DNA of 64,000 nucleotides, from NCBI GenBank assembly GCA_049510215.1, contig JBEKZD010000011.1, positions 28,151 to 92,150 of the forward strand. The letters are read 5' to 3'. Source of the DNA: Verrucomicrobiia bacterium. Its GTDB lineage: Bacteria; Verrucomicrobiota; Verrucomicrobiia; Palsa-1439. A model generated the notes under the pieces. It searched no databases. It worked only from the letters and a program-made list of their open reading frames with translations, and was not told the DNA's origin. The translations under genes and the position numbers were made by a program. Shown here in pieces: positions 41,205-48,049 of this stretch (position 1 is its first letter; every line of letters begins with the position of its first letter).

Positions 41205-41235
41205 TTTGGAAAAGCAAGCTTACTCTTGCGGAGGC

Positions 41236-41300
41236 GACACATCGCCGAGGTCACCAGCAATCGCGGCGTCGTCGAAGGCAAACGCGAACCCCTTATCGAG
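41236..41300 (+). repeat. degenerate duplicate of clpX 3'-terminal coding segment
   Basis: acatcgccgaggtcaccagcaatcgcggcgtcgtcgaaggcaaacgcgaacccc vs clpX 36592-36658; about 88% identity; encodes [21 protein letters not shown]. Confidence 0.7.
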
Positions 41301-41734
41301 AAAACATCTCGGCTGTTGAAGCTTTTTTCTCGGATTTCCGACCAAATGGCTCAAATTCCTATTCCCTCTGTCAAATGCTGGCCCCGAATGTCTGAGCACT
41401 AGCTGCTTTCCCCTCCGCGGAGGGAACGAAGGGGTGGGTTCCGCCTGCTCCGGATGCTTTCGGGGTAAACTTTTGAGGCGATGCATCGGTATCCGATGTA
41501 TCACCGGTTGTCACGTCCCCGCGTGTGCTGTGGAAAACCGACCCCGGCTCCTGCGGATTCCGTCAATTGTCAGGCGTTGACCCCGGCGACTAAAAAAGAA
41601 GATTGACGACGACGCCGAATCGCCGAACACTTGCCCCGATTAGAGCGGGGCTGCCCGCCGCCATCGCCAAGACCAGCGCCGCCGGGGCGAACCTGAGCGC
41701 CAGCGTTCGGCGAAACAAATGAGAGGAAATAAAA

Positions 41735-42376
41735 ATGCCACTGCATATCTTTTGGGATAACTCCAATCTCTGGGGAAGCGCACAGGCGTTGCGCCAGGTT
41801 CGAGAGCCAGATGTTCCGTGGGTCGCGCTTCGAGTCTACTTCCGAAACATCTACCAACTTGTGACACAAGATAGGCCCGTAACAACAAGAATCATGTCAG
41901 GTTCTGTCCCACCAGAATGCGAGGACCTTTGGGAATACGCGCGCCAAATCGGTTTCGAGACAAATCTCTTGCAGCGTGTCAAAACTGACGAGGACCAGCG
42001 CCGTCACGAACAAGCCGTGGACGAACTCCTTCACCTGAAAATGAGCAATGTCATCCTCGACTATGACCTACCACAGACGATGGTCGTTTTGTCAGGCGAC
42101 AGCCGAGAATCGGACTATGGTACAAGTTTTCCCTCTCAAGTATTGCGCGCCCTGCGAAACGGGTGGGATGTCGAGGTTTATTCCGCTAGCATGTGTATTA
42201 GCCAGAGAACATATTCACCAATTGTGCAAGAGTTCGGAACGCGATTGCGAATCGTGCATCTCGACGGCCAATATGAGTCAATAACCTTTGTACGTGGCGG
42301 TGAGTATTACGAGAAGGATGCCGCAGGAATCCGTACTTACTTTACTGTGCCAGAGAGAATTGTCAGGCCTTTGTAG
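41735..42376 (+). CDS. NYN-domain (LabA-like PIN-type) putative ribonuclease
   Basis: IFWDNSNLW (DxN) and MVVLSGDSRESDYG (SGDxD) NYN motifs; AGGA RBS; region GC markedly lower than flanks. Confidence 0.65.
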   Translation: MPLHIFWDNSNLWGSAQALRQVREPDVPWVALRVYFRNIYQLVTQDRPVTTRIMSGSVPPECEDLWEYARQIGFETNLLQRVKTDEDQRRHEQAVDELLHLKMSNVILDYDLPQTMVVLSGDSRESDYGTSFPSQVLRALRNGWDVEVYSASMCISQRTYSPIVQEFGTRLRIVHLDGQYESITFVRGGEYYEKDAAGIRTYFTVPERIVRPL

Positions 42377-42438
42377 GCCGAACCAGCCGCCGGACTTTAT
42401 TTCGCCCGAAGACGGGTGAAAAAGTCAGCGGTGACGTT

Positions 42439-43080
42439 GTGCCGATGAAAGAAAACAAACCGAAAATGCCGCATGATGCTTCCATCCGCATTGTCAAAAC
42501 GCGACATGACCCTCGCGTAAAAGTAAAGTCTGACGGTAAGCCGTGGGACTATTCAATCTATCCTGACTTGAGTCAAAGCCAGATCGAGGCGTTTCAGACA
42601 ATCGGAGAGACGCTGTATATGATTCAAATGGCCGAGAACGCCATCAAGATTTCCATTCGCTTCATTCTGAATGACGAAAACACCTACACAATCGAAGATC
42701 TCACAGCTCGCAATAGAGGAAAAAAGAAACGAACGCTCGGCCAACTCCTGCTGGAAGTTCGTAAATATTCAGATTTACATCCGCAGTTTGATGGGATGTT
42801 GGAGGCCTTTCTTGAAAAGCGAAACTGTTTTATCCACCAGATATTTTCTTCGAAAGAGTATGGTCTAAACAGCGATGAACAGCTTGCGCGCGTTAACGCC
42901 TTCCTTTGCGATTTACAGGATGATGCATGGAACGTTCAGAATGTTTTTCTTGGCTGCCTCAGACATTGGACGAAGGCGCACGGAATCTTTGACTCCCTCC
43001 CACAATCAATCCGTGAAGACAAGCATCTCACCCAGTTGGACGGGAAGGGATTTGAGCTATTATTGCGACAAAAGAAATAG
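42439..43080 (+). CDS. hypothetical alpha-helical protein with R-N-x3-H (HEPN-like) motif
   Basis: 213 aa, no recognised family; FLEKRNCFIHQIF fits HEPN Rx4-6H motif; low GC, adjacent to NYN gene. Confidence 0.45.
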   Translation: MPMKENKPKMPHDASIRIVKTRHDPRVKVKSDGKPWDYSIYPDLSQSQIEAFQTIGETLYMIQMAENAIKISIRFILNDENTYTIEDLTARNRGKKKRTLGQLLLEVRKYSDLHPQFDGMLEAFLEKRNCFIHQIFSSKEYGLNSDEQLARVNAFLCDLQDDAWNVQNVFLGCLRHWTKAHGIFDSLPQSIREDKHLTQLDGKGFELLLRQKK

Positions 43081-43150
43081 AAGATGGCACAACAATCGGC
43101 CGGAGGTTATAGAAAACCCCAGACGGTTTTCAAAACCTCAGCCACACCGT

Positions 43151-43480
43151 TATCGCCTCTTTCTCTTTGGCTTCGCAGCCGCCACGAGCGGCGCGGTGAG
43201 TTTTTCGTAGAGGGCGAAGAGGTATTCGACGCGCTGGCGGTCGCTGGGGAACGGGTCGGGCCGGTAACAGCGATCCACGGCGTGGTCGAGTTCCTGATGC
43301 GCCTTGAGCAGCGGAGCCGGCATCATCAACGGGTCGTACAGATCGGCCAGCCCCGAAAGCTTTCGGGGCCAGCGTCGAGGTCGGGAACTTCGCCCGCGCG
43401 TCCAACACCGCCTGCGCCGCCGCTTCGACCGCCGTCCGCTGCTTGTCCGTCAACTGCGGCACGATAACCAACTTACTCAA
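43151..43480 (-). pseudogene. 3' remnant of MmeI-family type IIG restriction-modification gene (frameshifted)
   Basis: encodes ...QLTDKQRTAVEAAAQAVLDARAKFPTSTLA then, after a frame break at the palindromic element, DLYDPLMMPAPLLKAHQELDHAVDRCYRPDPFPSDRQRVEYLFALYEKLTAPLVAAAKPKRKRR*. Confidence 0.6.
43345..43372. repeat. small palindromic element family C, inside the MmeI-like remnant at its frame break
   Basis: ggccagccccgaaagctttcggggccag; compare 33185-33210. Confidence 0.6.
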
Positions 43481-44402
43481 GCCGCTTCCGCGCAGGGTGA
43501 ACCGTGTAAAGGGCTTGGTCTTCCGCGACCAGACACGCCTTCTCGGTGATGGTGGCCTTTTCGAACATGAGCCGGGCGGGGGTGAACGGGTCAGAGTTCT
43601 CGGCTTTCAAATACCGGGCGGCCATTCGGCAATACTCAGGCTCGATCTCGACGCCGATGCTGTTGCGGCCCGTTTTCAGGGCGGCGACCAGTGTTGTGCC
43701 GGTTCCGCAGAACGGATCGAGGACGGTGTCACCGGCAAAGGAGAACATCTTCACGAGTCGCAGCGCCAATTGCATTGGGAAGGGTGCGGGATGGTGTTTT
43801 GTCGAGGCACCGGTGATGTTCCAGATTTGCTGAAACCATTCGCTGAAGTCCTTCTTGTTGATGCGGCTTTCGTCGCGCTGGCCGTTGGTCGGTTGCCGGT
43901 AACCGCCGGGCTTGCGCTGCATGAGGATGAACTCCATGTCGTTCTTGATGATCGCATTTGGCTCGTACGGTTTGCCAAGGAACTTCGAGCCGTTGGAGAC
44001 TTCATACGAGGCGTTGGAGATTTTGTGCCAGATGATCGGATTGAGATTGTCGAACCCAATCCGGCGGCAAAGGACGGCGATGTCCGCATGGAGCGGGAAC
44101 ACTAAATGCCGGCCGAATCGTTTGCGCGAGACGCACACGTCGCCGACAACGCAGACGAGCCGTGCGCCCGGCACGAGGACGCGCAGGACATGCCGCCAGA
44201 CCTTGTCCAACTCGCCGAGAAACGTCTCGTAGTCCTGGATATGGCCAAGTTGATCGGGATTCTCCTGATAGCGTTTCAGATTCCAATAAGGCGGCGAGGT
44301 CACCACGAGATGCACCGACTCGTCCGGTAGGAACGAGAGGTCGCGGGCGTCTCCGTGCACCAAGCGATGCATTGTCTGAGCCTTGGATGTCTCGTACTTC
44401 AT
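43473..44402 (-). CDS. DNA methyltransferase (beta-class N6A/N4C, motif IV SPPY before motif I DPFCGTGTT)
   Basis: HLVVTSPPYWNL ... DTVLDPFCGTGTTLVAA; 4-nt overlap with upstream REase gene. Confidence 0.8.
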   Translation of the reverse strand: MKYETSKAQTMHRLVHGDARDLSFLPDESVHLVVTSPPYWNLKRYQENPDQLGHIQDYETFLGELDKVWRHVLRVLVPGARLVCVVGDVCVSRKRFGRHLVFPLHADIAVLCRRIGFDNLNPIIWHKISNASYEVSNGSKFLGKPYEPNAIIKNDMEFILMQRKPGGYRQPTNGQRDESRINKKDFSEWFQQIWNITGASTKHHPAPFPMQLALRLVKMFSFAGDTVLDPFCGTGTTLVAALKTGRNSIGVEIEPEYCRMAARYLKAENSDPFTPARLMFEKATITEKACLVAEDQALYTVHPARKRLE

Positions 44403-45151
44403 AGCTCTTTGATTCGACCGGAGAATGCTGCCACATGTGCGACCAAAGAATTGGCAAACATCTGAAACGTGAGATCGGCTGCGGGTTCGGAGTATTCACC
44501 ATTGGCTCCCTTTTCAGCGTTCGACATCATGAATGACGCGGCATCGTAGTGGCGCTCTAAAACGAGACGGCGACAGAATAATTCATATCGCTTCGCGTAG
44601 GACGAATTCCGAAACTCAGGGAACACTTTGAAATGTGGTTCTTTGACGCCGACCGGGCGGTTTGACGGGGCACAGTCCTCAAGAAGGAACATGTAGCCGA
44701 TCCATGGCCGAACCCGCGATCCGAATGCTTTCTCGCGGAAAGCCGTCCACAGATCTAAAGCGCTACCCATCGCTTCTTCCGTGCGATTGTTAAAATTGTT
44801 TCCAAATGATGGGCCAACTTGGGATTTAGCTTCGAGCGCCGCTACCAACTGGCCTTTGACGACGACAATAAAGTCCCATTTCTTATTCGGTCGGAAGTAA
44901 CCCGGCAATTCGAGCGAGTCCTGATAATAGATGTGCGACCGGTCAATCCCCGCTTCAGTGACAAGCTTCGTCAGTAATTCGATGAAGCCGTCCATCTGCG
45001 CACCACCTGTTACTGCTGAGCGCAGACCTTGATCCGAGCCGCCAGCTTCGCGTTGTTTCTGCAACTGCTTGGAACGGGTTTGCCAATAAAACTTAACTGC
45101 ATCTGGAACATACTTCCGCAGTTCGGCGAGAGTTGAAGGATTTTTAGGCAT
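44399..45151 (-). CDS. putative type II restriction endonuclease (PD-(D/E)xK-like)
   Basis: 250 aa cotranscribed with the MTase; WDFIVVVKGQLVAALEAKSQ resembles PD...ExK core; otherwise no family match. Confidence 0.5.
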   Translation of the reverse strand: MPKNPSTLAELRKYVPDAVKFYWQTRSKQLQKQREAGGSDQGLRSAVTGGAQMDGFIELLTKLVTEAGIDRSHIYYQDSLELPGYFRPNKKWDFIVVVKGQLVAALEAKSQVGPSFGNNFNNRTEEAMGSALDLWTAFREKAFGSRVRPWIGYMFLLEDCAPSNRPVGVKEPHFKVFPEFRNSSYAKRYELFCRRLVLERHYDAASFMMSNAEKGANGEYSEPAADLTFQMFANSLVAHVAAFSGRIKEL

Positions 45152-45163
45152 TGTGTCGACGCC

Positions 45164-45421
45164 TCATACCAGCGGAGTGTAGCTGTGAGGAGATGCTTCG
45201 ACAAGCTCAGCATGACAGAATGGCGGGTCTATGAAACCCCAATCGCCGGAGAGCTTCTTGACCGGCTCCTCAAACGTAGCGACGGTGCGGCGACGGACGC
45301 CGAAGACGTTGAAGAAGTCGTTCCAGTAGGATTGGCGCTCGGCGGCTTCGCGGGTTTCGCCTTTCCATTCTTTGCTAAAGGTGATGGCGCGATGGCGAAT
45401 CTCGTTCCACGAGAGTGGCAT
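45164..45421 (-). pseudogene. 5' remnant of MmeI-family type IIG gene (N-terminal about 75 aa)
   Basis: MPLSWNEIRHRAITFSKEWKGETREAAERQSYWNDFFNVFGVRRRTVATFEEPVKKLSG matches MmeI-family N-terminus, then degenerates to a stop. Confidence 0.55.
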
Positions 45422-45600
45422 GCTGCGCAGTGTAGCGAAGCAGAGACTCTGCGACAATCCTTCGTTTCACTCAGGACGGCGGCTGACTGGGGGGACAAGG
45501 GGCAGCGGACGCGACGAAGCGCGTCCCTCCAGTTCGGACACGCGCGGGAGCCGAGCAATTGTGTTGACCGGGTCGGGAAAGTTCTCCATCAGTTAACGCC

Positions 45601-46997: not shown

Positions 46998-47684
46998 ATG
47001 ATCGCACTTGTTGACTATGGAATGGGCAACCTGCGCAGCGTCGAGAAAGCGCTGACGCGGGTCGGGGGAGATGTGCGCATCGTGAGCGACCGCGGATCGG
47101 TGCTCACGGCGGACGCGCTCGTGTTGCCGGGCGTCGGCGCGTTCGGCGACTGCATGACGAATTTGGAGCGGTTGGACCTTGTCGAACCCATCCGCGAGTT
47201 CATCGCAATCAAGCGACCGTTTCTCGGCATCTGCCTCGGGTTTCAGGCGTTATTCGAGTCCAGTGAAGAAGCGCCCGGCGTGAACGGTTTGGCGATCTTT
47301 GCAGGCACTGTCCCACGGTTTGATTTTAATGGTGCTGCCACACAGGCAGGGATGACTGTGCCACCAAATGCCAGTGGACTGAAGGTGCCGCACATGGGGT
47401 GGAACCAACTCCGCATCCGCAAGGCCGACTGCCCGGTGTTGGCGGGCATTGCCGACGGCAGCTACGTGTACTTCGTGCACAGCTACTATTGCGCGCCGAC
47501 CAACAAGTCGCTCATGTGCGCGACGACGACGTACGGCATCGAGTTTTGCTCGATGTTGTGGAGTGGGAGTGTGTTTGCGACGCAGTTCCACCCGGAGAAG
47601 TCGCAGGCCGTGGGACTGAAGATGCTGGAGAATTTTGTGAGATTGGCGGAGAAGTCAGGAGACAGAAGACAGGAGACAGAATGA
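46998..47684 (+). CDS. hisH: imidazole glycerol phosphate synthase glutamine amidotransferase subunit
   Basis: MIALVDYGMGNLRSVEKAL...LPGVGAFGD...GICLGFQ...HMGWN...FVHSYY. Confidence 0.9.
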   Translation: MIALVDYGMGNLRSVEKALTRVGGDVRIVSDRGSVLTADALVLPGVGAFGDCMTNLERLDLVEPIREFIAIKRPFLGICLGFQALFESSEEAPGVNGLAIFAGTVPRFDFNGAATQAGMTVPPNASGLKVPHMGWNQLRIRKADCPVLAGIADGSYVYFVHSYYCAPTNKSLMCATTTYGIEFCSMLWSGSVFATQFHPEKSQAVGLKMLENFVRLAEKSGDRRQETE

Positions 47685-48049
47685 GGCGCGAGCCGGCCAA
47701 GACATTCCGAGACTTGATCGTCTGGCAAAAAGCGCATCAACTGGTTCTGGCGCTCTACCGGTTCACGAACGACTTCCCGAAGTCTGAGACTTACGGTTTG
47801 ACAAGCCAGTTGCGCCGTGCGGCCGTCTCCGTGCCGGCGAACATCGCGGAAGGCTTCAAGAAAATGGGTCGCCCCGACAAGGCGCGATTTATGAACACAG
47901 CACAAGGCTCCCTTGAGGAATGCCGTTACTATCTGATCCTCGCCGCGGACTTGGGATACGGTGGAACAGACGAACTGTACAACCAACTCGATGAAGTCGG
48001 CCGATTGCTCGACGCTTACGCCTCAGCTATTCTGTCTCCTGTCTCCTGA
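47681..48049 (+). CDS. four-helix-bundle protein (TIGR02436-like, 23S rRNA intervening-sequence protein family)
   Basis: FRDLIVWQKAHQLVLALYRFTNDFPKSETYGLTSQLRRAAVSVPANIAEGF; ATGA overlap with hisH stop; sits between hisH and hisA. Confidence 0.75.
   Translation: MRREPAKTFRDLIVWQKAHQLVLALYRFTNDFPKSETYGLTSQLRRAAVSVPANIAEGFKKMGRPDKARFMNTAQGSLEECRYYLILAADLGYGGTDELYNQLDEVGRLLDAYASAILSPVS

Follow-up and report, generated by a model that had tools for sequence, protein, structure and literature searches.

Two putative nuclease genes in a low-GC island

The stretch of DNA analyzed here (64,000 nucleotides of contig JBEKZD010000011.1, hereafter the window) belongs to a Verrucomicrobiia genome from peat and carries two neighboring genes, which we call gene 1 and gene 2, each with an open reading frame (ORF) of 213 amino acids. 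An initial annotation of the window had placed two such ORFs in a low-GC stretch and had read them as a module that joins an NYN ribonuclease to a protein with a HEPN-like motif. The ORFs were confirmed at the positions listed in Table 1, and they occupy the deepest GC trough of the window. On the evidence set out below both proteins are putative nucleases, and we favor the view that their genes are neighbors rather than partners.

The two genes together have a GC content of 0.485, whereas 1346-bp subwindows of the 64 kb average 0.588 (z = -4.9), and only 0.18% of these subwindows are as low or lower. The lowest of all (41828-43173, GC 0.479) overlaps the gene pair almost wholly. The drop in GC originally described stands, whereas the figure of more than 60% given for the flanks was slightly generous, the measured values being 0.56-0.65. 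GC content at third codon positions (GC3) is 0.537 in gene 1 and 0.523 in gene 2, compared with 0.70-0.81 in the flanking host genes. Given the GC trough and the low GC3 relative to the host genes, the pair is recent foreign DNA, and it lies in a small variable island adjoining restriction-modification (R-M) genes. The location, too, is as first described, between secretion genes and a type II R-M system with MmeI-like remnants: a GspE/GspF-type operon lies upstream, and an XhoI-type R-M pair with MmeI fragments lies downstream. For gene 2, starts at GTG 42439 and at ATG 42445 are both possible.

Gene 2 belongs to a large unannotated family

No family model in Pfam, NCBIfam, PADLOC or PHROGs matched gene 2, in PADLOC even at E<=1, in keeping with the first impression that it fits no recognized family. 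Its close homologs form 31 clusters, all of them unannotated. With an exhaustive profile search, a much wider superfamily was found, comprising 1,034 clusters (50% identity) at E<=1e-3 and 315 at E<=1e-10, the members of which are mostly about 175 amino acids long. A third large-database search with the superfamily profile returned nothing beyond the known family and no Pfam-annotated relatives.

The segment EKRNCFIHQIF, which had been singled out as HEPN-like, is present in gene 2, and R128, N129 and H133 within it are invariant in 24 family members. When the alignment was extended to 133 superfamily members, with a mean column identity of only 16%, R128 and H133 (133/133 each) were the only invariant columns left. 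N129 is found in 131 of the 133, as is E66, with aspartate replacing the glutamate in the other two, and conservation is 90% or more at G56, Q63, T99 and G101. AlphaFold2 models of gene 2 reached a predicted local distance difference test score (pLDDT) of 74.8 with 24 sequences and 88.3 with 133, and their topologies agree: the chain runs from a long helix (residues 46-77) through a variable insert to a short helix (100-110), then to a helix at 115-133, a loop (134-145) and a second long helix (146-180). The conserved core spans approximately residues 36-200; the N-terminal 35 or so residues are poorly conserved and modeled with low confidence. In both models the R-N-x3-H motif forms the C-terminal end of the helix that begins at 115 or 117 and ends at 133, just before the loop to helix 146-180. 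The published definition of HEPN domains gives the position of the Rx4-6H motif (PMC3710099), and the placement in gene 2 matches it. Fold searches returned only generic helical bundles and coiled coils; they were uninformative and did not bring up the clear non-nuclease fold that would have spoken against the initial annotation.

HEPN families are the most recurrent weak matches of the superfamily in Pfam, PADLOC and NCBIfam. Scanning the 133 members singly against Pfam gave 27 HEPN matches, all below threshold and the best at E 4.7e-4, distributed over RiboL-PSP-HEPN (12), DUF4145 (8), Apea-HEPN (6) and Csm6_HEPN (1). The corresponding PADLOC matches were to Csx1/Csm6 (6), Cas13-ApeA, CARF_HEPN and an RT-associated HEPN, and those in NCBIfam to HepT (5) and Csm6 (2). 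In the three cases checked, the weak HEPN match spans the R-N-x3-H motif.

Gene 1, a putative NYN nuclease

Gene 1 likewise has no match in Pfam, NCBIfam or PADLOC even at E<=1, and none in PHROGs. It has 88 homolog clusters, the distant ones of which (down to E 1e-17) carry the NYN domain PF01936. Among 36 aligned relatives scanned singly, 28 match PF01936, the best at E 6.7e-10. D8 (within IFWDNSN), N11, D96 (within AVDE) and G121 are invariant in this alignment, and conservation at E92 and D122 reaches at least 90%; the NYN catalytic motifs first recognized by eye are thereby upheld, even though gene 1 itself escapes the PF01936 model. Because most relatives match that model and D8, E92, D96 and D122 are conserved, gene 1 is, judging from its sequence, a divergent NYN-superfamily nuclease with an apparently intact acidic site. 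A C-terminal extension of about 60 residues (including Y180 and R208) is likewise conserved in the family, whose profile matched no related solved structure among PDB sequences. An NYN subfamily divergent enough to escape the Pfam model is new, if modestly so.

Some metagenome gene calls start gene 1 at an internal methionine, giving a protein of 160 amino acids (P0032; 6001-6483 of locus L026) that lacks D8, and other metagenome assemblies have it at the full 213 amino acids. The longer reading is the right one, since the alignment with homologs starts at residue 1 and takes in the catalytic D8.

Genomic contexts and the question of pairing

We gathered contexts of both families from homolog-encoding contigs, from plasmid records, and by scanning genomes, metagenomes and viral contigs for sequence patterns, searched every context locus with hidden Markov models of both families, and removed duplicate assemblies. 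This left 14 distinct contexts for the gene-2 family (in 10 of which the upstream sequence exceeds 700 bp), 4 distinct contexts on plasmids for the wider gene-2 superfamily, and 18 distinct contexts for the gene-1 family. The two families occur together in none of these (0/14, 0/4 and 0/18), and there is no pairing even beside the closest relatives of each gene, at 62% identity (P0002, locus L035) and 65% identity (P0033, locus L009). Nor did all-against-all BLASTP of the neighbors show a recurrent neighbor of either family, as only duplicate assemblies of one locus and one pair of syntenic prophages clustered. Apart from the window, the pair was seen only in near-identical contigs from the same peat population; 24 of these were read around the flanking GspE gene, and every one shows the identical arrangement, none lacking either gene.

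The initial annotation had made its two-gene module depend on co-occurrence elsewhere, and on this point it does not hold: across the surveyed contexts the two families are never together and neither has a recurrent partner. It had also stated that no named defense system corresponds to the pair; this is borne out by PADLOC, which has no match to either protein at E<=1, and no NYN plus HEPN defense system was found in the literature searched. The data do not support a new two-gene system of this kind. Because genes 1 and 2 are neighbors only in this lineage, they are probably separate single-gene cassettes.

Two candidate partners of gene 2 were considered and rejected. One was an upstream ORF of about 140-165 amino acids, but the ORFs of different loci are not similar to one another and have no Pfam family in common. 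ParB_N was rejected as a general partner of the superfamily because it occurs only on the IncP-7 plasmid backbone.

The gene-1 family is patchily distributed over many phyla, prophages and plasmids, and often lies beside or inside defense operons. In Desulfosporosinus sp. FKB (NADJ01000027.1; locus L032, 1-4639) a homolog with 52% identity lies about 200 bp downstream of the Wadjet genes JetC and JetD, on the same strand. In Anabaena sp. UHCC 0187 (VILB01000026.1; locus L034, 503-8645) a homolog with 54% identity lies, with gaps of 3-10 bp, between a SNF2 helicase with NOV_C and a DUF1156 protein, the latter being followed by an unknown protein of 194 amino acids and then by a DUF499 ATPase. 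This type of operon is the Ava_2192 system of PMC3710099; no HEPN domain was detected in the 110 residues examined at the N-terminus of the Anabaena DUF499 protein. Other gene-1 relatives adjoin an Mrr endonuclease or, elsewhere, an FRG protein and an integrase; 13 viral contigs carry relatives, as do Burkholderia and Hymenobacter plasmids.

Relatives of gene 2 adjoin TIR and TIR-TPR-ATPase proteins in Cyanobium, and also Imm53, a trypsin-like protease with an FRG protein and GmrSD, and elsewhere a Gp49/helix-turn-helix pair. The close gene-2 family had no match in the viral-contig scan. The wider superfamily is present on conjugative plasmids of Pseudomonas, Comamonas and Vibrio, including pCAR1. 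On IncP-7 plasmids, a member of 188 amino acids, annotated as hypothetical, directly follows a small ParB_N gene (pCAR1, NC_004444.1 173127-174165, with the superfamily member at 173599-174165; locus L051, 3493-4531; and locus L052) in a backbone block that also holds xseAB, an AAA ATPase and umuDC. This pairing is absent on the Comamonas, Vibrio and P. antarctica plasmids examined, and on plasmids outside IncP-7 the superfamily member stands alone among integrases, insertion sequence elements and DUF262 and DUF2971 genes. Both families therefore behave like single genes that move horizontally as cassettes, with a patchy distribution and an enrichment in conflict loci.

As a separate observation, FRG-domain proteins of about 282-285 amino acids flank both a gene-1 homolog (locus L010, 2766-3614) and a gene-2 homolog (locus L003, 3200-4057); BLASTP at E 1e-4 showed no similarity between these two FRG proteins.

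The surrounding island

The features of the two genes and of the adjoining R-M genes are collected in Table 1.

Table 1. Positions of the two genes, their predicted functional residues and the downstream restriction-modification genes in the window.
Feature	Position	Strand	Basis
Shine-Dalgarno-like AGAGGA (core GAGG), 8 nt before the ATG of gene 1	41722-41727	+	Read from the sequence
Gene 1, ORF of 213 aa	41735-42376	+	ORF call
Gene 1 acidic residues (also E92)	D8 codon 41756-41758; D96 codon 42020-42022; D122 codon 42098-42100	+	
Gap between genes 1 and 2, 62 bp, with no terminator-like or promoter-like element	42377-42438	+	Sequence inspection
Gene 2, ORF of 213 aa	42439-43080	+	ORF call
Gene 2 R128-N129-C-F-I-H133, predicted catalytic Rx4H motif	42820-42837	+	Alignment and AlphaFold2 helix boundaries
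MmeI-like gene, C-terminal remnant	43150-43329	-	PF20467 MmeI_C, E 7e-15
N6/N4 DNA methyltransferase of the XhoI-type type II R-M pair	43473-44402	-	PF01555, E 5e-42; PADLOC MTase_II, E 1.9e-63
XhoI-family restriction endonuclease	44399-45151	-	PF04555, E 2.2e-90; PADLOC REase_II, E 9.7e-94
MmeI-like gene, N-terminal remnant	45164-45457	-	PF20464 MmeI_N, E 6.4e-10

The XhoI-type R-M pair lies exactly between the MmeI_C and MmeI_N fragments (43150-45457, minus strand), and it appears that the R-M cassette took the place of the central part of an MmeI-like type IIL gene that was there before it. Within the R-M pair, the endonuclease has a GC3 of 0.54, which is foreign-like and near that of genes 1 and 2, and the overlapping methyltransferase has a host-like GC3 of 0.77. 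Such a split is unusual for co-inherited genes.

A GC-rich spacer of 530 bp (41205-41734) separates gene 1 from the divergently oriented GspE gene; it contains several short imperfect inverted repeats, such as 41620-41634 with 41699-41713, and has no Rfam match. A search for mobile-element boundaries around the two genes found no tRNA genes and no Rfam match, and the repeats on either side, short and imperfect as they are (26 nt, 81%), are compatible with chance. Farther downstream, at approximately 47681-48049 on the plus strand (locus L026, 11788-12156), a gene for a 122-amino-acid four-helix-bundle protein of the 23S_rRNA_IVP/bAvd family lies between hisH and the next histidine-biosynthesis gene.

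Discussion

We favor, with moderate confidence, the interpretation that genes 1 and 2 are two independently mobile single-gene nuclease cassettes, which would have landed side by side in a small variable island beside an XhoI-type R-M system of a peat Verrucomicrobiia genome, gene 1 encoding an NYN/PIN-like nuclease and gene 2 a HEPN-like, stand-alone RNA effector. From family knowledge, the gene 1 product would presumably be a Mg2+-dependent endonuclease of the PIN/NYN type. By analogy with HEPN proteins, gene 2 would dimerize, bringing two Rx4H motifs into a composite, metal-independent RNase site, and once activated it could cut RNA of the cell or of an invader, on the model of stand-alone HEPN abortive-infection proteins. 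It would then serve as an abortive-infection or toxin-type effector in conflicts between cells, phages and plasmids. Either enzyme would have to be held harmless without a conserved partner; our guess is that a phage or plasmid component, or else oligomerization, triggers it, which is the usual solution. What the data show directly is two intact genes of foreign composition, how they relate to their families, which residues are conserved, where the gene 2 motif lies and that the two families do not co-occur in the contexts surveyed; nuclease activity, RNA substrate, dimerization and a role in defense are properties that we infer for the two proteins from such analogies.

That gene 2 represents an unannotated family whose members act in the way of HEPN RNases, and that it is probably a divergent member of the HEPN superfamily, we regard as quite likely, fold-level membership being a prediction.

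Several observations weigh against the interpretation that we favor. For gene 2, none of the 133 superfamily members reached the curated threshold of a HEPN model, no solved structure was matched when the family and superfamily profiles were run against PDB sequences, and E66 sits in the first long helix (46-77), where PMC3710099 puts the acidic residue in helix 2. As regards the independence of genes 1 and 2, the survey drew on a limited sample of contexts, with many short contigs and pattern-based scans of genomes and metagenomes that found only 3 and 10 loci, respectively, and the co-orientation, the 62 bp between the genes, the lack of a terminator there and the near-equal GC3 are also what a co-acquired unit would look like. 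For a role in conflict, several relatives of gene 2 are found among housekeeping genes (aldolase/ETF, HypF, cytidylyltransferase), so a defense role is not universal.

One rival explanation is that gene 2 is not a nuclease at all but a helical protein that serves mobile elements as adaptor or regulator, such as a plasmid factor acting with ParB-N-type proteins, in which the conserved R, N, H and E would bind a ligand or a partner. The lack of a HEPN match above threshold, the generic helical bundles and coiled coils of the fold searches and the place of the IncP-7 member in a backbone block right after ParB_N all agree with such a role. Nevertheless, an arginine and a histidine as the only invariant residues, an asparagine following the arginine and an Rx4H spacing at a helix end correspond to the HEPN catalytic signature, of which the conserved acidic residue may be a further part; HEPN families dominate the weak matches in three libraries; and the ParB_N neighbor is confined to one plasmid backbone. 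We therefore think a non-nuclease role improbable.

We judge it equally improbable that the pair is a lineage-specific module, acquired together and co-transcribed, in which an NYN and a HEPN-like protein cooperate, for example with one of them sensing or regulating and the other acting as effector, or with both as effectors that attack different RNAs. Same-strand genes with no terminator-like or promoter-like element in the gap, near-identical GC3 values within one continuous GC trough and an arrangement fixed in all of the population contigs read speak for it, and co-transcription of genes 1 and 2 is possible on the sequence of the junction. Against it stands the survey, in which the pair was found nowhere else, not even among the closest relatives, and each family clearly persists and spreads alone.

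A further rival is that neither gene has a role in conflict, the two being accessory enzymes of RNA metabolism or decaying cargo that lies beside the R-M cassette by chance. The housekeeping neighbors of some gene-2 relatives and the absence of a PADLOC match would fit, but both ORFs are intact and have kept all conserved residues, and patchy spread across phyla, carriage on plasmids and prophages, and frequent defense neighbors characterize both families, so that we consider this very unlikely. Two small, adjacent, co-oriented genes in foreign DNA, together with HEPN toxins being known from HepT/MntA systems and the weak NCBIfam matches to HepT, might suggest a toxin-antitoxin pair in which one protein is a nuclease toxin neutralized by the other, but toxin-antitoxin partners co-occur by definition and these families do not, both live solo with no conserved neighbor, gene 1 is not an MNT nucleotidyltransferase, and both proteins retain apparently catalytic residues, which makes this explanation hardly credible.

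If gene 2 is a true HEPN-type RNase, its superfamily adds a large family to the RNA-targeting enzymes of biological conflict. A large HEPN-like family that current annotation libraries miss is a modest but real novelty. Every member, including the one on pCAR1, is annotated as hypothetical because Pfam, NCBIfam, PADLOC and PHROGs miss the family, and a curated model would improve the annotation of defense islands and plasmids alike. A broader proposal, which we put forward only tentatively and consider rather doubtful as a whole, is that the gene-2 family is a widespread and hitherto unrecognized one of RNA-targeting effectors that stand alone, that it comprises at least 1,000 clusters (50% identity) and has members also on conjugative plasmids such as pCAR1, that it has an atypical HEPN-like architecture and a solo role in phage defense or plasmid competition, and that it has been newly coupled to an NYN nuclease in the present lineage. 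More generally, two nuclease genes adjacent in a low-GC island are no proof of a system, and a modest survey of contexts sufficed to tell neighbors from partners.

Comparison with known systems

The NYN domain family (PF01936), which Anantharaman and Aravind are said to have described in 2006, reportedly comprises LabA-like or PIN-like nucleases. Gene 1 resembles it in the N-terminal hhFhDxxN motif (IFWDNSN), the central VDE and the GD motif. It differs in that gene 1 and its closest relatives fall below the detection of the Pfam model, in that the canonical second aspartate of GDxD is not kept (the family consensus is TGDG), and in the conserved C-terminal extension.

In HepT/MntA, the HEPN-MNT type VII toxin-antitoxin system, a small HEPN-type Rx4H protein is likewise encoded beside another small gene, and five members of the gene-2 superfamily match HepT weakly. 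Unlike in that system, the neighbor of gene 2 is an NYN protein with no nucleotidyltransferase match and is not conserved, and the RX4HXY context of HepT is missing in gene 2 (RNCFIHQIF). Four superfamily members also weakly match each of two PADLOC models of PDC-S32, a candidate single-gene defense system, at E values of about 0.006-0.009.

A further comparison is with the HEPN abortive-infection solos (AbiU2, the AbiJ solos, AbiV and AbiD/F), with which gene 2 shares its nature as a small, single-gene helical protein of mobile DNA and R-M neighborhoods. For stand-alone HEPN Abi proteins, an RNase activity that takes effect upon infection has been predicted or demonstrated (PMC3710099; bioRxiv 10.1101/2024.05.05.592566). 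Gene 2 and its relatives match no Abi model in Pfam or PADLOC, the likeness being one predicted from sequence.

The last comparison is with the HEPN superfamily itself, particularly RiboL-PSP-HEPN (PF18735), DUF4145 (PF13643) and Apea-like HEPN (PF18739). Gene 2 departs from it in standing alone, with no fusion to L-PSP, restriction endonuclease, helicase or Apea N-terminal domains, and in having two helices of unusual length (32 and 35 residues) as well as a C-terminal extension. Yet it shares the invariant R-N-x3-H, with a polar residue after the arginine and a helix end just ahead of the loop that leads to the last long helix, and a predicted all-helical core with a variable insert, and the conserved acidic residue of its first long helix may be a further likeness; HEPN domains with inserts and with a conserved N-terminal acidic residue have been described (PMC3710099). 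With RiboL-PSP-HEPN and MAE_28990, as described in the same study, the gene-2 family has in common R-M and defense neighborhoods and, in one case, a ParB-type gene as a neighbor.

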